Positions 49,424 through 61,522 are shown, numbered from the stretch's first letter. The stretch is 64,000 nucleotides of DNA from an uncultured Fibrobacteraceae bacterium (GCA_964476155.1 CAYYYS010000012.1:6475-70474), one strand, 5' to 3'. Numbers and translations: made by a program. Notes: generated by a model not told the origin, from the letters alone.

Positions 49424-50019
49424 GCGTCGCCTCCCCAGCGCGGGGTCAGGTCGACGTCCACGCCGAGTTGATCGCAGACGCGCTGCACCACGAAGTCGAC
49501 CAGGTCGTCAACGCTTTGTGGGCCATGATAGAAACCGGGCATGGCCGGCAGGATGATCGCGCCCTCGGCGCTCAGGCGGGTCATGTTCTCCAGATGATGA
49601 GTGGCCAAAGGGGTCTCGCGCGGCACCAGGATGAGCGTGCGCCGCTCCTTGAGACTAACGTCGGCGGCGCGGTGCAGCAGGTCGTCGCCCGAGCCGGTGG
49701 CGATGCGCCCGAGCGTACTCATGGTGCAGGGGCAGACCACCAGGCCACTGCCCTGGGCTGAACCGCTGGCCACCGGCGCGGTGAATTCTTTCGGTCCGTA
49801 CTCGGTGAGGGTCGTGCCGTGTTTCTCGGCGGTGAGGCACAGATCCGCGATGATCTCCGCGGGCGGACGCCCCATTTCCACCGGTGCGGTCTGCTCGACG
49901 GCCTCGCTGCGCAGCAGGGTCACATCACGGTCAGCTTGGAGCAGGACCTCGACGAGCCGAACGCCATAGGCGAGCCCGCTGGCGCCGGTCCAGGCCACGG
50001 TGATGGTGCGGTCTTTCAC
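49420..50019 (-). CDS. ubiX: Flavin prenyltransferase UbiX
   Basis: GTG start with RBS GGAGG. ...ITVAWTGASGLAYGVRLVE... and ...LVVCPCTMSTLGRIA... The N-terminal 100 aa of the track ORF is spurious. Confidence 0.85.
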   Translation of the reverse strand: MKDRTITVAWTGASGLAYGVRLVEVLLQADRDVTLLRSEAVEQTAPVEMGRPPAEIIADLCLTAEKHGTTLTEYGPKEFTAPVASGSAQGSGLVVCPCTMSTLGRIATGSGDDLLHRAADVSLKERRTLILVPRETPLATHHLENMTRLSAEGAIILPAMPGFYHGPQSVDDLVDFVVQRVCDQLGVDVDLTPRWGGDA

Positions 50020-50765
50020 GCCAACCTCCCCCCTACCAGATGCGAAATGCCGAAGGTCTGTCTCTCTACGAAGGTATCGACGAAACCGTGTGCCACCAGA
50101 AGATCCACGAACCCGTCCGGCGTGACGAAGCGTGCCATGCTCTCGGTCAGGTAGGCGTAGGCGGCGCGATCGCGGCCGAGCAGGCGACCGGCGGCCGGCA
50201 CGGCGCGGTCGAGCCACCAGTGCAGCGGCGCCGGCTTGCCGCGGGAGTCGCCGGTCGAGGCGGGATCGTCGCGGAAGAATTCGAGCAGCAGCAGCCGTCC
50301 GCCGGGGCGCAGCACGCGAGCGCACTCGCCAAGCCCCAGACCCAGGTCGGCCCAGTTGCGCACGCCGAAACCCACGACCACCGCGTCGACGCAGGCGTCG
50401 CGCAGGGGCAGGCTCTGGGCATCGGCGCCGAGGGCGGGCACACGGTCGACCAGGCCCTTGTCCCGACCGGCGGCCATCATGTCAACGCAGAAGTCGGCGG
50501 CGAACGCGTTGCGGGCCCGGCCGGCGCCAAGGGCCGCCAGGGCCAGGTCGCCGGTGCCGGCGCAGAGGTCGAGCAGGTCCCGGGTGTCGGGATCGAGACG
50601 GCGCACCAGGTTGCGACGCCAGGCGCGGTCGCGGTTGAAGCTCAGGGCGTGGTTCATGAAGTCGTAGACGCCGCTGATGCGCGAGAACATGGCGCGCACG
50701 GCCTGGTCGTGGGCGGTCGGGTCGTTGACCGAACCGTCGGTGCCGCGCTGGTGGATGCGACTCAC
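50016..50765 (-). CDS. ubiE: Ubiquinone/menaquinone biosynthesis C-methyltransferase UbiE/MenG
   Basis: GTG start overlapping the ubiD stop (GTGA). ...AVRAMFSRISGVYDFMNHALSFNRDRAWRR...LDLCAGTGD.... Confidence 0.85.
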   Translation of the reverse strand: MSRIHQRGTDGSVNDPTAHDQAVRAMFSRISGVYDFMNHALSFNRDRAWRRNLVRRLDPDTRDLLDLCAGTGDLALAALGAGRARNAFAADFCVDMMAAGRDKGLVDRVPALGADAQSLPLRDACVDAVVVGFGVRNWADLGLGLGECARVLRPGGRLLLLEFFRDDPASTGDSRGKPAPLHWWLDRAVPAAGRLLGRDRAAYAYLTESMARFVTPDGFVDLLVAHGFVDTFVERQTFGISHLVGGRLA

Positions 50766-52303
50766 TGTTTCTCCAGACGGGACAGCAGGTCGCCCCACTC
50801 GCGGTCCACGTCGGCCCGCACGTCTTCGCTCATGCGGACGATGGGCGGCCACTCGCGCTCGAACCCCTCTTCGCCCGCGAGCTTGCTCGTGGCGTCGAGG
50901 CCCATCTTGCCGCCGACGAACTGGGTGCTCACCGCGTGGTCCAGGTGATCGACCGGTCCGTCCACGAAGAAGGTGTCGCGCCTGGGGTCTATGGAATTGG
51001 TCACCCGCCACAGCACCTGGTTCATGTCGTGCACGTCGACATCCTCGTCCACCACGATGATCGTCTTGCAGAACATCATCTGGCCGAGACCCCACAGGGC
51101 GTGACACACCTTGCGCCCATGTCCGGGATACTGCTTGCGGATCGCCACGACGGCCAGGTTGTGGAAGCAGGCGGCCGGCGGCAGATGATAGTCGACGATC
51201 TCGGGCAGGGTCTTCTGTAGCAGGGGCAGGAAAAGGCGCTCGGTGGCCCATCCCAGCACCGCGTCCTCCATGGGCGGCACACCCACGATGCACGTGGGAT
51301 AGACCGGCTTGCGGCGCGAAGTGATGGCCGTCACGTGCAGGACGGGAAAGTCTTCCGGCAACGTATAGAAACCGGTGTGATCGCCGAACGGTCCTTCGCT
51401 ACGCCGCTCGCCGGGCTCCACGAACCCTTCGATGACGAACTCGGCCTCGGCCGGCACCTGCAGGTTGTTGGTCACCGCTTTGGTCCAGGTCACGGGCCGC
51501 CCCGTGACGAATCCCGTGAAGAGCGCTTCGTCCACATCGGGCGGCAGGGGCGCAGTGGCGCCGTAGATCAGCGACGGCGGGCCGCCCAGGGCCACACACA
51601 CGGGCATGCGTTCGTTGCGCGCCTCGTGCTCGCGATAGTGATCGGCGCCGGTCTTGTGTAGCTGCCAGTGCATGCCGGTGGTCCGGCCGTCGTAGACCTG
51701 CATGCGGTACATGCCGATGTTGCGGCGGCCGTTTTCGGGATTGCGGGTGATCACCAGCGGGTAGGTGATAAAGGGGCCGCCATCCTCGGGCCAGGTCTTC
51801 AGGACGGGCATCATGTCCAGCAAGCCGCGGCGTTGCAACGCCTCACCCTGGATCACGACCTCCTGGCAGGGGCCGCCCTTGACCTCGCGAGGCATCCCGG
51901 CACTCCAGTCCCGCGCCTTGCCGAGCATTTTGAATTTATCCCAAAGACCGTCCGGCGCGCCGAGGTTCAGGGGCTCGCGGATACGGGCGACGGCGTCTTC
52001 GAGATCCTCACACCCCATCGCCCAGGCCAGCCGACGGCGCGAAGCAAAGAGGTTGATCACCAACGGCACGGGCCGGCCGTCACCATCGACGGCAGGCGTC
52101 TCGAGACCGGCGGCGCGGCCGTACTTGCCCGGAACGGGGTTTTCGAAGAGCAGGGCCGGGGTCTCACCCGCCTTCACGAAGCGGTCCGCGATCTCGGTCA
52201 CTTCCAGACAGGGATCGACCGGTTTGCTTACGCGCACCAGTTCGCCGTTTCTTTCCAGATGGGCCAGGAAGGATTGCAGATTGTCGCCGGGAATGGTGGC
52301 CAT
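50762..52303 (-). CDS. ubiD: UbiD family (prenylated-FMN dependent) decarboxylase
   Basis: 513 aa. ...GGPFITYPLVITRNPENGRRNIGMYRMQ... and ...GVPPMEDAVLGWATERLF... First gene of the ubiD-ubiE-ubiX-ubiA operon. Confidence 0.9.
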   Translation of the reverse strand: MATIPGDNLQSFLAHLERNGELVRVSKPVDPCLEVTEIADRFVKAGETPALLFENPVPGKYGRAAGLETPAVDGDGRPVPLVINLFASRRRLAWAMGCEDLEDAVARIREPLNLGAPDGLWDKFKMLGKARDWSAGMPREVKGGPCQEVVIQGEALQRRGLLDMMPVLKTWPEDGGPFITYPLVITRNPENGRRNIGMYRMQVYDGRTTGMHWQLHKTGADHYREHEARNERMPVCVALGGPPSLIYGATAPLPPDVDEALFTGFVTGRPVTWTKAVTNNLQVPAEAEFVIEGFVEPGERRSEGPFGDHTGFYTLPEDFPVLHVTAITSRRKPVYPTCIVGVPPMEDAVLGWATERLFLPLLQKTLPEIVDYHLPPAACFHNLAVVAIRKQYPGHGRKVCHALWGLGQMMFCKTIIVVDEDVDVHDMNQVLWRVTNSIDPRRDTFFVDGPVDHLDHAVSTQFVGGKMGLDATSKLAGEEGFEREWPPIVRMSEDVRADVDREWGDLLSRLEKQ

Positions 52304-52499: not shown

Positions 52500-53195
52500 A
52501 TGCACTGGTCTGCAAAGAAACTGCTCGACTGGTATTGTACCGTGCGCTGGGTAGACCCCAAGTCGGAGGGGTCGTCTGAGAGCGCACCCACCGAAGCGGG
52601 GGCGTTTCCGAACGAACCCGAGTTGGCTATCCAGAAAGAGAAGATCCGGCTGGCCAAGATCGATCCCGAAACATTCGATTTCTTTTATGTGCACTACTAC
52701 CACCGGATCTTCAGTTTCTGTTATGGGCGGACCCGGCATCGAGACGTGGCGGAAGACCTGACATCCGAGACCTTCACGAAGGCGCTCGACAACATCGGTA
52801 AATACCGCTGGTCCGGAGTGAGTATCGGAGCCTGGCTCTACAGGATCGCCGCAAACGAGATCAAGGGGTACTACAGGACCAGGGCCCGGCGACCCGAAGC
52901 AGAGATACCGACCAACGTTCTGGGCGAGGATCTGCTGGTGGGCAACGAACCGAGCCCGGAACGAAGAGTGGAATTGGCGCAGGAGCGGGCCAAGCTCGCT
53001 GAATACGCGTCGCGACTCGATCTCGACGAACAGAACTATCTGAACCTGCGCTTTCGCGAGGGTTTGTTGATCCGGGAGATCGCGGCGATCGCAGGGAAAC
53101 CCGAAGGATCCATCGCCGCACGAATACACCGAAGTCTTGTCAAGATGCAGAAGATGGGGGAAGAGGAAGCGGAGCAAGGTAATGAGAACCGTTAG
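52500..53195 (+). CDS. ECF-type RNA polymerase sigma-70 factor
   Basis: RBS GGGAGA. Region 2 ...FYVHYYHRIFSFCYGRTRHRDVAEDLTSETFTKAL.... Region 4 ...LNLRFREGLLIREIAAIAGKPEGSIAARIHRSL. Confidence 0.85.
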   Translation: MHWSAKKLLDWYCTVRWVDPKSEGSSESAPTEAGAFPNEPELAIQKEKIRLAKIDPETFDFFYVHYYHRIFSFCYGRTRHRDVAEDLTSETFTKALDNIGKYRWSGVSIGAWLYRIAANEIKGYYRTRARRPEAEIPTNVLGEDLLVGNEPSPERRVELAQERAKLAEYASRLDLDEQNYLNLRFREGLLIREIAAIAGKPEGSIAARIHRSLVKMQKMGEEEAEQGNENR

Positions 53196-53895
53196 CGACA
53201 TGGAGCAGAGACTGCGGGCCACATCCGTGGATCCCGGCGTTCGACAGGAACACTTCGACGCTTTGCGCGCCGAGCTGCAGTCTCGTATGCGCACACGTCG
53301 ATATCGACCGCTGTTTGTGGCGGCTGCTTCGATTGTCTTCATATGCCTGGTGACGTTCCAGGATCAGCCGCTGGAGAGCTTCAACTATCGGCTCGACTAC
53401 TTCGCGGGCGAGGAAAATTCAATTTATTCGTTCATGTCCCACAGGGATGCGTCAACGTCGTGGGGATTTTCCAAATCTGTCGGAGATCTCGAGGCATATG
53501 AACGAGCGCCTATGACCCCGGAAGAGATCGCCCACCGAATACACAAAACTGAAATCAGCCAGGCCATGTTCGAGGCCGGACTCCTCGAGCCGACAAGAGC
53601 ATATGGGCACACCTGGAAAGGACAAACGACGTATTCTGTAATCTTTACAGGTGAATCCGGAGGGCTCGAATTGCAATACACCTCATATATAGATGATATC
53701 ATCCACCCCGAACATACCGACTTCATGGTCAATCATTATGGCGATATCTACATGGCGGCCTTCCGGGGAGAGCTTTCGCCATACGCTTCACAGGTTATTG
53801 CCCATGATAGCCGCGAGTTCATCCTTCACGGCTGGCGTCACGAGGATCCCGTTTACGGCGAAGTCATTATCTGGACAACCCAAGATTTTAACTAA
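53182..53895 (+). CDS. Putative anti-sigma factor-like membrane protein (single TM, periplasmic domain)
   Basis: Overlaps the sigma stop by 14 nt. TM YRPLFVAAASIVFICLVTF. 170-aa periplasmic region with no recognisable domain. Confidence 0.5.
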   Translation: MRTVSDMEQRLRATSVDPGVRQEHFDALRAELQSRMRTRRYRPLFVAAASIVFICLVTFQDQPLESFNYRLDYFAGEENSIYSFMSHRDASTSWGFSKSVGDLEAYERAPMTPEEIAHRIHKTEISQAMFEAGLLEPTRAYGHTWKGQTTYSVIFTGESGGLELQYTSYIDDIIHPEHTDFMVNHYGDIYMAAFRGELSPYASQVIAHDSREFILHGWRHEDPVYGEVIIWTTQDFN

Positions 53896-55351
53896 CAAAA
53901 GTCGATTTCAGGAAGTCGAGGCTCCGCGGGTTGCGTGCCAGGAGCTCTACGTACATGCGCAGGGTTTCCGCCTGGCCGGTCCGCACCGTGGTGCAAACGG
54001 AATCCACCGCTTCCGGCTTCATTCCCCCCCGCTCCCAAGATTCGGCCAACACCGAGAAACAAGCCGAGCAGAGTCGACACGCCCAGCAATCCAAACAGTG
54101 TTCGCCGAATGATTGCTTGAAGCGACTCCAGAGGACTTCCACAGCCTCCAGGTCGAGACCTTCGCTCACGTGACCGATGATCAGCCCGTCTCCCACCCGC
54201 TCACACGGTTGATAGGCCCCATCGGCACGCACGTGCAGGCGACGTTGGCCGGGCCGGCAGCAACCGCCTGGTGAGATCGCGTCGCCCAGCGTCTCGCGGA
54301 AACGATGATAGAAGGAAACCAGTCCATCGTCGAAAAGAGCAGCCAAAATGGGGCCGGGAGTCCGACCGGCCACACGGGTATCGACATAACGCTGTCGAGC
54401 TGCGAGCAGATCGTCACGAAAACGACCCTTGTCTTCCGTCGTGATGCCGATATCGCCCGGATTGATCCCGGTGAGGTCGACGATGCTGGCGCCAACAGAC
54501 GGCGCCTCTTTGATTCCCGCCTTCCGGTAGGGCGGAAAGTCCGCAAAGTAGGTGTCGACACGCTCAACCTCTGTGGGCGGCGCCAGGGTTACCTGGAAGC
54601 GCAACTGCTCGTGGGCGCGCGATGAAACGGCCAGGAGTCGGCCTATTCCCGCTTCGACTTCGGCATGTGACGGGCCTCCGCCCCGATGAGATCTATGTCG
54701 GTCATGAATGTCCGTGGGGCCGTCAAGACTGATCTGCAGATGGACGCCCTCGGTCACGATGAAAGCGCAGACCTCTTCACTGAGCAGGGTGCCGTTCGTG
54801 TCGATTATGAAGCGGTAGTCGTCGCACGGTCCCTCTCGACGCACCAGATCGACGATCTCGCGGATCAGATCGAACTCGAGAAGAGGTTCACCGCCGTAGA
54901 ACGAGATGGACGGTGTTTCCACATCGCGGCTGCGCGTCAGAAACTCGCGCACGGCCTTGCGTGCCACACTCGGTGACATCCGTTCATCCTGGTGAGATCG
55001 AATCCAGCCCAACTCATGGCCGTGGGGACAATATCCGCACCGCAGGTTGCATTGCTCGCTCACCGAGAGCGTAAGCTGCCCGACCTGGCCGTCGTACCCA
55101 TTCACATCGTGGCAGGCCGGGCATGTGTCGAGGGCCGTTGGTCGGTGAGACAGGAAGAGATTGTGGGCCTCGCGAGCTTCGGCGATTTCACGGTGGGCCG
55201 CCTGCAGGTCTTCGGCCGAAACCCCGGCACCGGCAGGACCGCCAAGCGCGACGGCCATGGCCGAATCGACGGAGATCACATCGCCCGAGTTTACATCATA
55301 GGCATATCGATCTTCATCATGGTCGAAAACGAAGCAAAAAGCGTCTGGCAT
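53888..55351 (-). CDS. Radical SAM / SPASM-domain peptide-modifying enzyme with N-terminal RRE-like extension (putative RiPP maturase)
   Basis: CNLRCGYCPH (CxxxCxxC) about 100 aa from the N-terminus. C-terminal SPASM Cys clusters CCRPG...C...CLDCWACRLCSACFS. Located 12 nt downstream of the Cys-rich precursor ORF. ATG at 55351 (track uses TTG at 55360). Confidence 0.9.
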   Translation of the reverse strand: MPDAFCFVFDHDEDRYAYDVNSGDVISVDSAMAVALGGPAGAGVSAEDLQAAHREIAEAREAHNLFLSHRPTALDTCPACHDVNGYDGQVGQLTLSVSEQCNLRCGYCPHGHELGWIRSHQDERMSPSVARKAVREFLTRSRDVETPSISFYGGEPLLEFDLIREIVDLVRREGPCDDYRFIIDTNGTLLSEEVCAFIVTEGVHLQISLDGPTDIHDRHRSHRGGGPSHAEVEAGIGRLLAVSSRAHEQLRFQVTLAPPTEVERVDTYFADFPPYRKAGIKEAPSVGASIVDLTGINPGDIGITTEDKGRFRDDLLAARQRYVDTRVAGRTPGPILAALFDDGLVSFYHRFRETLGDAISPGGCCRPGQRRLHVRADGAYQPCERVGDGLIIGHVSEGLDLEAVEVLWSRFKQSFGEHCLDCWACRLCSACFSVLAESWERGGMKPEAVDSVCTTVRTGQAETLRMYVELLARNPRSLDFLKSTFVS

Positions 55352-55363
55352 GTCTACCAAGGT

Positions 55364-55561
55364 CTACGTTGGTACGGTGGATTCGAACATCCTGGTATCT
55401 ACTTCATTCCCGGGCGTTCGAGTCGGCGAAGCGGCGGCTTGATCCCCCGTCCTGCAGTTGCAGTTGCATGAGCAGGTGCAGCTGCATGCCATTGCGTTGG
55501 GCTGTTCTTCGGTTGCCGTAGTGGGCTGATGGCCCGGATCCACTTTTTTGTACATAGTCAT
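55364..55561 (-). CDS. Candidate RiPP precursor peptide with alternating Cys core CSCTCSCNCNC
   Basis: MTMYKKVDPGHQPTTATEEQPNAMA-CSCTCSCNCNC-RTGDQAAASPTRTPGNEVDTRMFESTVPT, 65 aa. GGGAG RBS is placed 6 nt before the second ATG (55555). Preceded by an AT-rich promoter region. Confidence 0.6.
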   Translation of the reverse strand: MTMYKKVDPGHQPTTATEEQPNAMACSCTCSCNCNCRTGDQAAASPTRTPGNEVDTRMFESTVPT

Positions 55562-55810
55562 CTCCCTTTTTGTATGGGATATACATCCGTCACTATTGAA
55601 GATACCAAATCTTCCGCGCTTTTTTATTGATTTTTTTAATATTCAATGCAAAGAAATCACTCCCCCGGCATTGTAGCGGATGGACGGAGTAGCGTTGTGG
55701 GGGGTTCTCGATCAATAATCGATTTCTACAACGGCAAGGGCGTGCAAGTTAGCTAAATATTTCCTCCCGCTACAGTCGGGGGACGCCGTATTAGTTTCGC
55801 TCTTTGGGCG

Positions 55811-55842
55811 AGGGGCGACGAGCGTCTCCCGGCGTTTTTTTT
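55811..55842 (+). terminator. Orphan plus-strand hairpin + T8 terminator-like element (no annotated plus-strand gene upstream)
   Basis: gggcgacg-ag-cgtctccc with 7 of 8 bp paired, then ggcgTTTTTTTT. Lies in the 310-bp AT-rich gap between the methyltransferase and the precursor gene. Confidence 0.3.
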
Positions 55843-55869
55843 AGGGAAGAGTCGAATCGAGCCGGATAA

Positions 55870-56529
55870 TTAGCGACGGCGGGCTGCCAGCTCCACATCG
55901 CCGTGCCGATGCTCCGGTCCATCTCCGTGTCGATGCACGGGGCCCAAGGTCTCGTCGTGGCTCAGGATCTCCCACCCACGCAGCAGATCACGGATTTCCC
56001 GACGCGCCAGATAGGTGCGGTAGTCACCGTCCGGACTGCGGAAGCTATGGCGACCAGCCGGCGTCCACGTGTCCCGGTAGGTCTCGTACGAGGGATCGTC
56101 CACGTGCCAGGCGACCAGCAGAAGGATCGCGCCAGGGGCGGTCCAGCGCTGGAAACGATACAGGAGGCCGGCGATCTCGGCGCGTGAGAGGATCTGTAGC
56201 AGACCGAAGCATAGCACCGTGTCGAAGGGCGCCGACGGCTCGTAAGCCAGGACCCCTCCCCGCCACAGTTCGAGATCGAGACCCGCCTCGCGAGCCCGGC
56301 GCTCGGCCTGGGCGATGGACGCGGCTGACGGGTCGATCCCGGTCACACGCATGCCGGCCGCGGCCAGGGGCAGCGCGTTGCGTCCCTGTCCCACACCCAG
56401 GTCCAGCACGCGACCGCCAGGCTCGAGGTCTCCGGCGAAGCGCGTCAGGAGCGGCGCGGGTTCGGAGCCGAAATAATAGGTGTTGTCGCCATAGGCTTTG
56501 TCGTAATCGTCGGTGCGTTTATCCGCCAT
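55870..56529 (-). CDS. Class I SAM-dependent methyltransferase (TehB/TPMT-like)
   Basis: ...GRVLDLGVGQGRNALPLAAAGMRVTGIDPS... motif I. 219 aa. Co-directional and immediately upstream of the precursor/rSAM pair. Confidence 0.8.
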   Translation of the reverse strand: MADKRTDDYDKAYGDNTYYFGSEPAPLLTRFAGDLEPGGRVLDLGVGQGRNALPLAAAGMRVTGIDPSAASIAQAERRAREAGLDLELWRGGVLAYEPSAPFDTVLCFGLLQILSRAEIAGLLYRFQRWTAPGAILLLVAWHVDDPSYETYRDTWTPAGRHSFRSPDGDYRTYLARREIRDLLRGWEILSHDETLGPVHRHGDGPEHRHGDVELAARRR

Positions 56530-56535
56530 GGGACG

Positions 56536-57123
56536 TCAATCGCCATAGATGGTTTTTACGTCGCCCCAGGCCCGGGGCTCGTCTTCGGCGGCCGAGTTGA
56601 TGGTGAAGGAGGGGAGGTCGTCGGCGCCACAGGGGCTACAGGGGTGCACCATACCGACATCCGAGGCGTAGCCGGGATTGTCCGGCAGGTCGAGGGAGCC
56701 TGGAACCGGTTTGATGTAGAAACGGATGGAATCTTCGTTGAAGGTCAAGACTGAGATCGAGAGCAGCGGAATCACATTGGCGCTGTTGGGCGTGAGGGGA
56801 CTCAGGGCCGTCCCGACCTGGTATTCGGGGCTCGAAGCGAAGTTGAGAGCGCTCTCGCCCAGAATCTGCCAGGTCGCCGACATGTTCTCCTCGCCCGCGA
56901 CCTCGATATAGGCTTGCCAGCCCAGCGCCTGGGATTGCGAAGGATTGACGACGCACAGATAGATCGTCTGCTGCGTGAAGGCGGCGAGGTCGATATTGCC
57001 GCCACACGTGGACTCGGATTCGTTATCCGCGCAGAAACACATGACGTCGGACTGGGCCACCGCGACGGTGGCGAAGACGAGAACGAACAGGCATGTCGAA
57101 AGCACGCCATATACACGATTCAT
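56536..57123 (-). CDS. Secreted Cys-containing domain protein with C-terminal ...AWGDVKTIYGD tail (paralog family B)
   Basis: Signal peptide MNRVYGVLSTCLFVLVFATVAVA (RBS AAGGGAA). Domain QSDVMCFCADNESESTCGGNIDL... is paralogous to the N-terminus of 57277..59595. Confidence 0.75.
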   Translation of the reverse strand: MNRVYGVLSTCLFVLVFATVAVAQSDVMCFCADNESESTCGGNIDLAAFTQQTIYLCVVNPSQSQALGWQAYIEVAGEENMSATWQILGESALNFASSPEYQVGTALSPLTPNSANVIPLLSISVLTFNEDSIRFYIKPVPGSLDLPDNPGYASDVGMVHPCSPCGADDLPSFTINSAAEDEPRAWGDVKTIYGD

Positions 57124-57276: not shown

Positions 57277-59595
57277 CTACTTCACCAGGGTCAATTTGGC
57301 CATGGTGTCGGTCCGGACACCATCCAACAGGAGTACGGCGAAGTAGGTTCCGCCGGCGAGTTCGCGACCGGTGTCGTCCAGGCCGCGCCAGGTCTCTGTG
57401 TAAGTCCCTGCCGTTTGTGTGCCCAGATCAAATGCGCGCACGCGGCGGCCACGCAGATCGTAGATCTCGAGGCCGAGCCGACCGGGTAGGCTGCTGGTCA
57501 GCTTGATCTCGGTGCTGGGGTTGAAGGGGTTCGGGTGACTGGTGATGGCGTGGGCGACGGGTCGGTCGGGAGCCGCGGTCAACGCGTCCGGGGAGCGGAA
57601 GGTCACCAGTAAGGGTTCATCGCCTACTTCCAGTACGACCGAGGACTCGTCCTGCATGGACATCACGACCACGCGGTTTTGGTGGGGTAGGTAGATCTGG
57701 GGGTCGGTTTTGTCTGGTAGGGCCGTGCTGTCCCAGTTCAAGACGACCGGGCCGGGTTCCGGGGCTGTTAAGGTGGCGGTCCAGTCGTAGGGCTCCTCGA
57801 TGGGGGCGCGGATGTCGGTGAGGAAGGATGAGCCTACGGCGAGGTCCCATTCGGGGTGTTCGAAGCGGAGTTTGGCCGCGCTTCGGGGGACTGGGGACGC
57901 GGGGGGTTCTGGGAGGTCGTAGCGGGCGTCGAAGGATTCCCGGGCTTGGGAGTTGAATCCCAGGGAGACGCCTTCGGAGCGGCCGTCTACAGAAAAGGCC
58001 AGGCGCCAGGCGTCTGGAGAGTCGAAATCGTCTGTCTTGGGGGTTGTGCCTGGGGGGATTACGGTGGCGTAGTTGAACTTGAGCTGGATGTAACTATCGT
58101 GACAGGCCACCCAGTATCCATACCATGTGTCGAATGTCACTGCATCTACATATGACTCCGAGGCTGAATCGTAGCCGAAGGGGAAGGCCGAGACCCAGCC
58201 TGCGCTCACGGCTTCGCCCCAGGTACGTATATCGTATCCGGATCGTGTCACCATAACACCGTCAAGATCCGTCGAAATCCATAACGGATAGCTAACCATG
58301 TTCCAACCGGGGGTCAGCGGAACGTTGACCTCACTGGTATTCAAGGTTCCACCAGGGATATCCCAGGTGTACGCCTGTGTCGCACCAATCCAATAGGCCT
58401 TGAGCAGGTCGGCCGCATCGCCGAGCTCAAGGAGTCTGTATCCGTTGCCGGGATCATGATCGTAAATGAAAGTCGACCACGCCGCGTTTTGCAGAAACGC
58501 CTGGGAGATAGTCCCGGGACTTGGCGGGATCATCGGCAGGCCGGCCAAAGACCAGCCCGCCGGCAGGTCCCGGGACTGGGGCTCCGGCCCGACCATACCA
58601 GGGGGCCCCACCCACAACTCCAGAGTGCGTGGGATGCCGGGAGTCGGCATATAGTTGAAGCTGTAGCCGATCATACGGACATCCACGGTCCAATCGTCGA
58701 CGGGATCATGGAGATACAAGCCCCAGCCATCATCGAACAAGTCATCCGGCGCGAAATCGAGAGTCATTTGCTGGCTGCGATCGGTCAGGACTTCGAAGGA
58801 CCAGACCTTGAGGTTGTCCAATGGATTATAGGGCTCGCGGTAATCGGTCATGAAGCGGTCGCCCAGGGGTGATGCCCATTCGGGATGCGGGAAATAGAGG
58901 GTCACGTATTCGCTTGGCTGTATCGGCGGTTCGGGGGCATCAAAGGGGGGATCATAAATGTCGGTCGCATTGGTGATCGCGCCGGCGATATTGCCGTTGT
59001 CGTCAAGATTGTCGACATGAGCGCTTAGCTCGACGGAGAACTGCGGAAAGGACGGAGGGGGATCTTCGCCGTTGATGGTGAAGACTGGGATGTCGGGATC
59101 GCCGGAGCAGGTTACGCAAGGAATAGAGAAGCCTGCTTCCGGAAAATAGCCCGGGCTGTCAGGGTAAGACGACGAATCCGGTACTCGCCGAACATGGATA
59201 TTGATTGGGGCGGACGTGTCGATCACCGTAAGCGCTATTTGCAACAACACCATACTTCCATCTGCGTTGGGATGCATCGGGCTCGCGCCAAGTCCGACGA
59301 TATAATTGGAGCCATATCCGATATTGAGGCCTCCGCCAAGAACCTCCCAATCACCGAAGTAGGTCACCGTCGTTACGATCTCGACTTGGGCCTCCCAGGC
59401 CGAAACCTGATAAGCACTTGGATTAGTAATGAGCAGATACAGATTCTGCGTGTGGTACATGTCGACATCCACATTTCCGCCACAAGAGGAATAGCTCTCG
59501 CTATCGGTGCATACACACATCACATCCTGCTGGGCAACGGCGACACCGAAAGCCACGAGACTGAACAGGCAAATAGTGGCTACTAGATTTCGCAT
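57277..59595 (-). CDS. Large secreted protein: N-terminal family-B Cys domain, internal repeats, C-terminal T9SS/FlgD-Ig-like sorting domain
   Basis: Signal peptide MRNLVATICLFSLVAFGVAVA. N-terminal domain QQDVMCVCTDSESYSSCGGNVDV.... CTD ...HPNPFNPSTEIKLTSSLPGRLGLEIYDLRGRRVRAF...GTYFAVLLLDGVRTDTMAKLTLVK. Confidence 0.8.
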   Translation of the reverse strand: MRNLVATICLFSLVAFGVAVAQQDVMCVCTDSESYSSCGGNVDVDMYHTQNLYLLITNPSAYQVSAWEAQVEIVTTVTYFGDWEVLGGGLNIGYGSNYIVGLGASPMHPNADGSMVLLQIALTVIDTSAPINIHVRRVPDSSSYPDSPGYFPEAGFSIPCVTCSGDPDIPVFTINGEDPPPSFPQFSVELSAHVDNLDDNGNIAGAITNATDIYDPPFDAPEPPIQPSEYVTLYFPHPEWASPLGDRFMTDYREPYNPLDNLKVWSFEVLTDRSQQMTLDFAPDDLFDDGWGLYLHDPVDDWTVDVRMIGYSFNYMPTPGIPRTLELWVGPPGMVGPEPQSRDLPAGWSLAGLPMIPPSPGTISQAFLQNAAWSTFIYDHDPGNGYRLLELGDAADLLKAYWIGATQAYTWDIPGGTLNTSEVNVPLTPGWNMVSYPLWISTDLDGVMVTRSGYDIRTWGEAVSAGWVSAFPFGYDSASESYVDAVTFDTWYGYWVACHDSYIQLKFNYATVIPPGTTPKTDDFDSPDAWRLAFSVDGRSEGVSLGFNSQARESFDARYDLPEPPASPVPRSAAKLRFEHPEWDLAVGSSFLTDIRAPIEEPYDWTATLTAPEPGPVVLNWDSTALPDKTDPQIYLPHQNRVVVMSMQDESSVVLEVGDEPLLVTFRSPDALTAAPDRPVAHAITSHPNPFNPSTEIKLTSSLPGRLGLEIYDLRGRRVRAFDLGTQTAGTYTETWRGLDDTGRELAGGTYFAVLLLDGVRTDTMAKLTLVK

Positions 59596-60210: not shown

Positions 60211-60496
60211 GTCGATAATCCGCTTATACGTTTTGGGCGATCCGCGTCTGATTATAGCAGATCTGTGGATTATATGCGTATCGATTTACCTAATAATGGG
60301 GGTGTTTGTACGGGAGGCATTTCTGTGCTTGGTTGGAGGCTTTCGGTGCGCATAAATCATACCCGCGTGCGCCTGTAACTTATAACATAGCATGATGTTA
60401 GCGCTTGCGCTGCTGGTGTTTTTCGGCTATATTGTCTCCATCGAATGCATCCGTTTCGACCTCCCGCGAAACGCTCGTTTTCTGGGAGGTTTTTCT

Positions 60497-61522
60497 ATGT
60501 CAGCCAGCGAAATCCATGCTCGTCTTCAAGCGGCTTTGAGTGAACTTCAGCGGGCGGAGAAGAACGCCGTTCTGTTGTTCGGCGAGATTCTTCGGCGCAA
60601 GTTGTATCGGGATCTTGGTTACTCATCTATTCAGGTTTATGCCGCCGAAGCGCTCGGGTTCTCACCGAGTAAGACTTCGCAGTTTGTGCGACTGGCGGGG
60701 GCGCTCGAAGAGCTGCCGCAGCTGCGTCGATCGGTGGCGGCCGGTGAGTTGGGGTGGACCAAGGCGCGGGAGGTGGCCAAGGTGGCTACGCCCGAAAGTG
60801 AAGAGAGATGGATCGCCGAGGCGGAGCGGTCGAGTAGTCGCAAGTTGGAGCAAACGGTGCGGGCAACACGCAAGCGGGCGCGCCTGGCGCCGCAAGTTGC
60901 GGAGCTGCCTGCGCTGGACCTGGGCGAGCCATCGCCAGCGCTGCCCACGGACGCTCCGCTCTCGGTGAGTACAAAACTCACGGCCGAACAGTACGCCCGC
61001 CACGAGGCTCTGTTCGAGACGATCCGCAAACGAGGCAACCGAAAAAACTCGACAGTACGGGGTATGGACCGCGCCGAGTTGTTGCTCGTCGCGCTGAACG
61101 ATCTGGCGGAGAAGCTCGCGCAAGAGCCGGAAACCAAGATCGTCTCCAGCCCGCCTTATCAAGTCGTAGTTTACACGTGTAAAAAGTGTGGCAAGTCCGA
61201 GGTGCAAACCGACCGCGGTCCAAAGCCCATATCAACTGAAGTTGTGCATTGCGACGCCGTCATCCATGAGCCTAGCCAGCCCAATCGCTCGACCATCCCG
61301 CCGAAAACCCGTCAGGCTGCCATGATCAAGGCCAACCATCGTTGCGAGACACCGGGATGCGGGCGGACACGGTTCCTGGAGGTTCATCATCGGCGTCCGC
61401 GATCGCTGGGGGGCAGCAACGAGGTGACCAACCTCCAGGTGCTATGTTCGAGTTGCCACCAGCTGGTCCATCAACGAGGACAATCGCAACCGGCACAGCA
61501 TCAATATGAGAAAACGGGGTAA
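60497..61522 (+). CDS. HNH endonuclease (DUF222-HNH type)
   Basis: RBS GGGAGG before the internal ATG. C-terminal ...CETPGCGRTRFLEVHHRRPRSLGGSNEVTNLQVLCSSCHQLVH (HNH with Zn Cys). Confidence 0.8.
   Translation: MSASEIHARLQAALSELQRAEKNAVLLFGEILRRKLYRDLGYSSIQVYAAEALGFSPSKTSQFVRLAGALEELPQLRRSVAAGELGWTKAREVAKVATPESEERWIAEAERSSSRKLEQTVRATRKRARLAPQVAELPALDLGEPSPALPTDAPLSVSTKLTAEQYARHEALFETIRKRGNRKNSTVRGMDRAELLLVALNDLAEKLAQEPETKIVSSPPYQVVVYTCKKCGKSEVQTDRGPKPISTEVVHCDAVIHEPSQPNRSTIPPKTRQAAMIKANHRCETPGCGRTRFLEVHHRRPRSLGGSNEVTNLQVLCSSCHQLVHQRGQSQPAQHQYEKTG

Follow-up and report, generated by a model that had tools for sequence, protein, structure and literature searches.

Within 64,000 nucleotides of DNA from an uncultured Fibrobacteraceae bacterium (GCA_964476155.1, CAYYYS010000012.1:6475-70474; this whole stretch is called the window, with positions counted from its first letter), we observed a gene for a short cysteine-rich peptide directly upstream of a gene for a radical S-adenosylmethionine (SAM) enzyme with a C-terminal SPASM region. 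The two are found together in relatives, where genes for an extracytoplasmic function (ECF) sigma factor and an anti-sigma-like membrane protein accompany them. We consider it probable that the locus is a module for a ribosomally made peptide with post-translational modifications (RiPP), in which the radical-SAM enzyme would carry out leader-guided thioether cross-linking of cysteines, and which forms a four-gene unit with the sigma pair. The thioether chemistry, taken by itself, is favored by a little in our analysis. A previous reading of the window, made without knowledge of its relatives (the sequence-only reading), had proposed a RiPP-like locus made up of a methyltransferase, a cysteine-rich precursor and the maturase; the last two of these are retained here and the first is not.

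A C-x-C peptide gene paired with a radical-SAM/SPASM enzyme

The three co-directional open reading frames (ORFs) of the sequence-only reading were all found on the minus strand at the coordinates it gave. These are a class I SAM methyltransferase ORF, which we take up with the flanking genes, the small peptide ORF and the enzyme gene. From the first of two candidate start codons, at 55561, the small ORF would encode 65 aa (55364-55561); from the second ATG, at 55555, it would encode 63 aa (MYKKVDPGHQPTTATEEQPNAMACSCTCSCNCNCRTGDQAAASPTRTPGNEVDTRMFESTVPT; 55364..55555). The second ATG is preceded, at a distance of 6 nt, by a GGGAG Shine-Dalgarno sequence, and this spacing makes 55555 the probable start and 63 aa the probable length of the peptide. 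A motif scan places its core, CSCTCSCNCNC, at 55454..55486 on the minus strand, with six cysteines (C24, C26, C28, C30, C32 and C34) in strict C-x-C spacing. Between the stop codon of the peptide (55364-55366) and the enzyme's ATG at 55351 there are 12 nt, the same gap that had been reported before. The enzyme gene (53888..55351, minus strand) is open from a TTG at 55360; public gene calls begin it instead with the ATG at 55351, most likely the true start, for a product of 487 aa. In public annotations of identical metagenome contigs, the peptide gene is left uncalled.

Among the loci of radical-SAM homologues that we compared, 11 were informative for adjacency of the peptide, 10 for the sigma/membrane pair and 12 for the methyltransferase; one further locus, L092, is cut off by a contig end. 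A homologous small C-x-C ORF adjoins the enzyme gene in 10 of the 11 (L004, L085, L086, L087, L088, L089, L090, L091, L094 and L095), and the enzymes of these ten loci have 64, 62, 55, 45, 44, 43, 38, 36, 36 and 34% identity. The sequence-only reading had made its case depend on the small ORF being conserved in relatives and on homologous enzymes adjoining small cysteine-rich ORFs, and both held in these 10 loci. Homologues of the enzyme number roughly 1,600. Labelled relatives point to Latescibacterota, Krumholzibacteriota and Gemmatimonadales, and the window itself belongs to metagenome assemblies. The position of the peptide gene relative to the enzyme gene takes four forms: directly upstream and co-directional, the arrangement of the window; directly downstream (L090); divergent (L091, L094 and L095); and, in L087, 1.6 kb past the end of the enzyme gene, on the opposite strand and beyond the sigma genes. 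The sole exception to the pairing is L093 (5001-7448), a paralogue-type locus that shares its sample series with the window; its enzyme has 42% identity, and the anti-sigma-like gene is kept directly downstream. A scan of genome contigs with the single radical-SAM protein recovered L004 as the only relative. A scan of metagenome contigs with an alignment, which used generic radical-SAM patterns, gave only distant enzymes of at most 31% identity; these served only as a source of further loci with CxC peptides (L006, L030 and L040).

The peptides form a family with the leader consensus M-[YFI]-x-[KRI]-[VLIM]-[DE]-P and a core of three to six cysteines, always alternating in strict C-x-C spacing. 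Only Met1 and C26, C28 and C30 are invariant in the peptide alignment. Members with at least four cysteines carry a C-x2-[GST]-D-Q-A motif, and the C-termini differ by subfamily, ending in ...PT, ...PG(GG) or ...[FWY][DE]ING. A search of 1.84 billion proteins with a profile built from 16 of the peptides retrieved 33 representative clusters, all of them 55-78 aa in length, and every named member of these clusters is annotated 'hypothetical protein'. As had been anticipated, the precursor falls outside the named families, matching no Pfam family and no NCBIfam family at E<=0.01. Between the window and L085, leader and core differ by 15 synonymous and 7 non-synonymous codon changes, whereas the tail differs by 7 synonymous and 17 non-synonymous changes; the non-synonymous share of the tail amounts to 17-20 of 27 codons. 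The synonymous excess in leader and core indicates that the reading frame is under purifying selection there while the tail is free to vary, and with the conservation across loci we regard the small ORF as a real conserved gene, not a chance ORF.

Small C-x-C ORFs also stand beside other, more distant enzymes. One (L006, 1711-1929; CKCTCWC) lies next to a CcpM-like radical-SAM/SPASM gene that is closer to CcpM (321 bits) than the enzyme of the window is, and two others (L030, 1011-1268, CSCGCSC; L040, 1780-2007, CACACECVCAC...CACACYC) lie next to FibroRumin-like radical-SAM/SPASM genes that score 285-295 bits against the FibroRumin model. None of these three enzymes reaches the cut-off of its family. 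The presence of such cores beside other unnamed radical-SAM enzymes means that the core motif as such is recurrent.

Family matches and conserved motifs identify the 487-aa enzyme as a peptide maturase of the radical-SAM/SPASM class and of the sacti- or ranthipeptide-synthase type. Its best NCBIfam match is CcpM (TIGR04068; 223.4 bits, cut-off 500, residues 11-471), and it also matches the models of RumMC (178 bits, cut-off 720), the lachnocin maturase (154 bits, below cut-off), QhpD (130 bits, cut-off 453), PapB (123 bits, cut-off 340) and the SCIFF maturase (TIGR03974; 100.9 bits, cut-off 425). These best matches are all thioether-forming peptide maturases. The StsB model is absent from the 25 best NCBIfam families, and Pfam, run on the whole protein, finds the Radical_SAM core only (58 bits, cut-off 29.5). 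The radical-SAM cluster motif, C101-x3-C105-x2-C108 (55028..55051), is invariant in 40 homologues and lies about 100 aa from the N-terminus, as the sequence-only reading had it. That reading's C-terminal SPASM region (53993..54259) is likewise present: the pattern CX9-15GX4C ... CX2CX5CX2-3C ... C is matched, and seven cysteines (C365, C383, C419, C422, C428, C431 and C453) are invariant in the same 40 homologues, with no eighth conserved SPASM cysteine in their alignment. The C-terminal 134 aa match the C-termini of RumMC and CcpM, RumMC being the closest, and the generic SPASM models come just under their cut-offs (TIGR04085, 25.0 bits against 27; Pfam SPASM, 15.3 against 21.5).

The N-terminal part of the enzyme (~aa 1-88; 55088..55351) is a putative peptide-recognition domain. 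Among solved structures, a profile search ranks CteB first (E 1e-50), with an alignment that starts at CteB residue 3 and so covers the N-terminal peptide-recognition domain of CteB. Alignments to the anaerobic sulfatase-maturating enzyme anSME and to ChlB start only at about residue 106-113; that of anSME begins at residue 113 and therefore lacks the N-terminal domain. In the AlphaFold2 (AF2) model of the enzyme (pLDDT 93.5), the N-terminus is predicted to form three beta-strands (6-11, 14-19 and 24-28) followed by helices (30-35 and 46-63). Foldseek, run with this model, also ranks CteB first (E 1e-19, ~510 columns, ~20-22% identity). The sequence-only reading had left room here for a PqqD-like RiPP recognition element. 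Pfam PqqD was undetected in the N-terminal 89 aa even at E<=10, while a recognition element of some kind is supported by the homology to CteB and the predicted fold rather than by an independent model of such elements.

The ECF sigma factor, its membrane partner and the upstream region

The sequence-only reading missed two genes on the plus strand, 3' of the enzyme gene and convergent with it (52500-53895). The first (52500..53195) encodes an ECF-type sigma factor of 231 aa, with Pfam Sigma70_r2 and r4_2 matches covering regions 2 and 4 only and a TIGR02937 score of 81 bits (cut-off 42.9). Four nucleotides after its stop codon begins the gene for a single-pass membrane protein, also of 231 aa (53200..53895), for which the label 'anti-sigma' is suggested by position and predicted topology. 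Neither Pfam nor NCBIfam gave a match for this protein, and no anti-sigma domain family was detected in it. Its AF2 model begins with short helices, followed by a single long hydrophobic helix (37-54), and ends in a confidently predicted alpha-beta3-alpha-beta3 domain, for which the PDB searches that we ran gave no credible fold match. A hidden Markov model built from five of the membrane proteins retrieved, among 2789 ORFs, only the module partners in L087, L090, L093, L094 and L095; the membrane proteins therefore form one family.

The sigma gene accompanies the module in L085, L086, L087, L088, L089, L090, L091, L094 and L095, and the pair of sigma and anti-sigma-like genes is present in 9 of the 10 informative loci, arranged in three ways and surrounded by otherwise unrelated genes. 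The pair is kept despite wholly different surroundings, such as the PrkA, SpoVR and DUF444 genes of L090 and L095, and in L091, L094 and L095 the order is sigma factor, membrane protein, peptide (on the opposite strand) and radical-SAM enzyme. This co-occurrence argues that the conserved unit comprises four genes, for the peptide, the radical-SAM enzyme, the ECF sigma factor and the anti-sigma-like protein. The 3' ends of the enzyme gene and the anti-sigma-like gene overlap tail-to-tail at 53888-53895, an overlap that is 8 nt in L001, L085, L086 and L089 and 4 nt in L088 and that leaves no space for a terminator between the two genes. At two loci the sigma gene of the module is broken into two ORFs: L003 (5689-6462; 125 and 93 aa), whose contig carries an identical enzyme, and L087 (5658-6263; 43 and 115 aa). 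These splits could be frameshifts, pseudogenes or assembly errors.

Upstream of the peptide gene, in the 308-nt spacer that separates it from the methyltransferase gene, lies a long-loop hairpin (55777..55831, minus strand as written) with an 11-bp outer stem and a loop of ~33 nt that contains the invariant motif CCTCGCCC. The hairpin is kept in six loci, including L086, which has no methyltransferase, and 5 of its 13 pairs show compensatory changes. Pairing is about equal on either strand (67 versus 73 of 78 paired cells). No Rfam match was found in the whole window or in the upstream region of the peptide, hairpin included. Near-consensus sigma-70-type promoters precede the peptide gene in the three-Cys loci L087, L091 and L095 and the enzyme-peptide operon of L090. 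Three other ideas about promoters were set aside. A candidate ECF element, GAAC-N17-CGTC (55683-55707), shows conservation in no more than the three closest loci and no enrichment in the window; the conserved TTGCA block 5' of the peptide gene, considered as a sigma-54 promoter, was dropped on inspection for want of a GG at -24; and autoregulation of the sigma gene found no support, its upstream region having a conserved extended -10 element, TGTGTTATGAT.

Proposed chemistry and competing readings

In the mechanism that we propose, which is modeled on CteB, RumMC, PapB and QhpD, the leader of the 63-aa precursor (M-Y-x-K-V-[DE]-P-x-H) would dock on the CteB-like recognition domain of the radical-SAM/SPASM enzyme. 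The radical-SAM cluster would cleave SAM to a 5'-deoxyadenosyl radical that takes a hydrogen from an acceptor residue, and the cysteine thiolates of the core would be presented to an auxiliary cluster with only three protein ligands. In a seven-Cys SPASM region of the CteB type, auxiliary cluster I keeps an iron site free for a cysteine of the substrate; by that precedent, exactly seven invariant SPASM cysteines would therefore leave such a site in the enzyme of the window. Cysteines would then be joined to acceptor carbons by as many as six sactionine- or ranthionine-type thioethers in each peptide. A candidate acceptor, and the only one that recurs, is the Asp four residues past the last cysteine in the C-x2-[GST]-D-Q-A motif of members with at least four cysteines. 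Conceivably, the thioethers, as many as six, might sit like rungs at every other residue of the product; we did not come across such a ring topology in the papers searched. The ECF sigma/anti-sigma-like pair would either control the module or respond to its product.

Several characterized systems are informative for comparison. The best solved match by both sequence and fold is CteB, the maturase of the SCIFF-derived ranthipeptide thermocellin of Clostridium thermocellum (PDB 5WGG and 5WHY), which shares with the enzyme of the window a radical-SAM core and a seven-Cys SPASM region and, as predicted for the window, an N-terminal recognition domain and a Cys-rich peptide substrate. The likeness is limited by a structural-alignment identity of only ~20-22% and a score of 101 bits against the 425 of the SCIFF maturase model, and the precursor differs from SCIFF in its C-x-C spacing, its long variable tail, its taxa and its gene context. 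CcpM, the Cys-rich peptide radical-SAM maturase, and RumMC, the ruminococcin C sactisynthase, are the best-scoring curated families; the alignment to CcpM is full-length and the C-terminus is most like that of RumMC, but the scores (223 bits against 500 and 178 against 720) set the enzyme apart from both, and the peptide matches no clostridial Cys-rich precursor model. The best precedent for cross-linking a C-x-C run is StsA, whose CxCxCx4GxGxG core is converted by a radical-SAM enzyme into a hairpin with three nested Cys-to-C-alpha Cys-Gly sactionines (PMC10288494). StsA shares the alternating C-x-C-x-C donor cysteines; in contrast, the peptides described here have up to six cysteines and no GxGxG after the core in any of ~40 peptides, and StsB is MftC-like with a separate recognition protein whereas the present enzyme is CteB/CcpM-like with a putative fused recognition domain. 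PapB/freyrasin and QhpD/QhpC, which form thioethers from Cys to Asp or Glu, are both among the family matches. The C-x3-D spacing from the last cysteine to the Asp of C-x2-[GST]-D-Q-A resembles the CX3D unit of PapB substrates (PMC9413430). Unlike in PapB and QhpD systems, there is one such Asp, itself not invariant, for up to six cysteines, and the scores are 123 bits against 340 and 130 against 453.

The sigma pair also has counterparts. Sigma/anti-sigma pairs regulate RiPP clusters of the lantibiotic type according to work cited in PMC7113386, and bufferins are Cys-containing RiPPs linked to ECF SigF/NrsF and metal stress (PMC11626156). In both, as in the module with its putative anti-sigma factor and RiPP, an ECF sigma factor and a membrane anti-sigma factor are linked to a Cys-containing RiPP; maturase class, precursor family and phyla differ, and the membrane partner in the module has no recognizable anti-sigma domain. 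Judged by these comparisons, the module works like a sacti- or ranthipeptide pathway of the CteB/CcpM type and lies outside every named equivalog.

A number of observations weigh against a thioether-forming RiPP module. The actual chemistry cannot be read from sequence, and the enzyme reaches no curated NCBIfam cut-off and, as noted, lacks a PqqD match. In the peptide, the tail is fast-evolving and offers nothing conserved that would correspond to the GxGxG acceptors of StsA, and the Asp at +4 after the last cysteine is missing in L086, P0127 and P0158. Neither the ORF listing nor the neighbor genes include a protease or exporter nearby, which bears on leader removal and export; the sequence-only reading had already seen that no transporter or protease is adjacent. 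At L093, no C-x-C peptide or sigma gene was detectable within 5 kb. On the regulatory side, no ECF-type promoter is conserved across the family, and this, with the sigma-70-type promoters at L087, L090, L091 and L095, leaves ECF control of the peptide gene unsupported.

In a rival reading, the cross-linked C-x-C peptide, rather than being exported, could serve the neighboring ECF switch as its own signal, ligand or cofactor: it would remain with the anti-sigma-like membrane protein, or come back to it, and gate the release of the sigma factor. The four genes would in that case be a self-contained signaling device dependent on a peptide, and not a cluster of the antibiotic type, in uncultured relatives of Latescibacterota, Krumholzibacteriota and Gemmatimonadota. 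We regard this as unlikely, if attractive in some respects: the four genes co-occur in 9 of the 10 informative loci amid unrelated neighbors, there is no transporter, protease or immunity gene nearby, the sigma-70-type promoters of L087, L091 and L095 and of the L090 operon stand without a shared ECF promoter, and the confidently predicted extracytoplasmic domain of the membrane protein, having no PDB fold match, could be a dedicated receptor. Sigma/anti-sigma regulators are, however, already known for ordinary RiPP clusters (from work cited in PMC7113386), and an ordinary cluster-situated regulator would be the simpler reading of the pair. A contact between peptide and receptor is without any support, the peptide has no signal sequence, so that its route to the extracytoplasmic domain is unexplained, and L003 and L087 have a split sigma gene.

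The enzyme may also carry out some other Cys-centered reaction, for example the formation of thio-oxazole-type heterocycles, yielding a metal-binding peptide tied to an ECF stress response. Runs of C-x-C are classic metal-binding motifs, as in metallothioneins, and a tail without conserved acceptors would fit a chemistry confined to cysteine. [quoted passage not shown] The closest characterized enzymes nonetheless all form thioethers, bufferin precursors have signal peptides and a different enzyme family (PMC11626156), and none of the genes called around the loci examined was recognized as metal-handling, so we hold this improbable, more so than the peptide-gated switch. A non-RiPP enzyme, of the anaerobic sulfatase-maturase or cofactor-biosynthesis type, next to a fortuitous small ORF is effectively refuted. 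It could appeal to the presence of anSME among the structural and sequence matches and to the curated thresholds that were not reached, but the anaerobic sulfatase maturase model (TIGR03942) gives 74.1 bits against a cut-off of 349, which places the enzyme outside the group whose membership the sequence-only reading had named as fatal to its proposal. The anSME alignment omits the N-terminal domain, no sulfatase occurs among the window or neighbor genes, and the peptide is kept in 10 of 11 loci with selection on its coding frame. We continue to prefer a RiPP module with leader-guided thioether cross-linking.

Flanking genes and what the module would mean

The methyltransferase (55870-56529, minus strand; 219 aa, TehB-like) matches Pfam Methyltransf_25/23 and TehB, with all NCBIfam matches under their cut-offs. 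The sequence-only reading had counted it as part of the locus, a claim that the comparison does not support. The gene is present in 5 of 12 loci (the window, L004, L085, L088 and L089) and absent from the other 7 (L086, L087, L090, L091, L093, L094 and L095), and L086 has a six-Cys peptide yet no methyltransferase. Where it occurs, it follows the wider synteny: L085, L088 and L089 keep the ubiquinone/menaquinone-pathway genes of the window, including a UbiE-type methyltransferase, and L085 and L089 additionally keep the UbiD and flavoprotein genes; L004 is too short for its wider synteny to be judged. Because it is patchy, follows synteny, and lies 308 nt from the peptide gene but a mere 6 nt downstream of another gene, which encodes a secreted protein of 195 aa, we conclude that the methyltransferase is a lineage-specific syntenic neighbor outside the core of the module.

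On the far side of the sigma gene, and divergent from it, genes for a UbiD-family decarboxylase, a UbiE-type methyltransferase and a prenyltransferase-like flavoprotein form an operon (50016-52303, minus strand, and upstream), an arrangement kept in L085 and L089. Beyond the methyltransferase, the 195-aa secreted protein (56536-57123, minus strand) and a 772-aa protein (57277-59595, minus strand) have a common N-terminal domain with the motif MC[FV]C-x-D-x-ES-x-S-x-CGGN, for which searches gave no family match. An FlgD_ig-type domain forms the C-terminus of the 772-aa protein, and the gene for the 195-aa protein lies upstream of the module in L001, L004, L085, L086 and L089. Farther out, a 376-aa ORF (60392-61522, plus strand) ends in what reads as an HNH-nuclease-type Cys/His motif, HRCETPGCGRTRFLEVHH...CSSCHQLVH. 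It sits between an AIM24-like gene and the 772-aa gene, and nothing comparable is found there in L085 or L086, which suggests a local insertion.

The peptides belong to an unnamed family of peptide natural products, of an already well-known type, and the module leaves the general picture of radical-SAM/SPASM RiPP biosynthesis unchanged. If our interpretation is correct, it would add an unnamed family of radical-SAM RiPP precursors, with strict C-x-C repeats of three to six cysteines, from phyla with almost no characterized natural products. The 63-aa peptide and its single enzyme would provide a compact two-gene system for testing how closely spaced cysteines are cross-linked. A RiPP-gated switch, were that unlikely reading true, would be a new input mechanism for ECF sigma factors. 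The conserved linkage of the pair to a sigma factor and a membrane protein would give a system in which to test whether a modified peptide is part of envelope-stress-type signaling.

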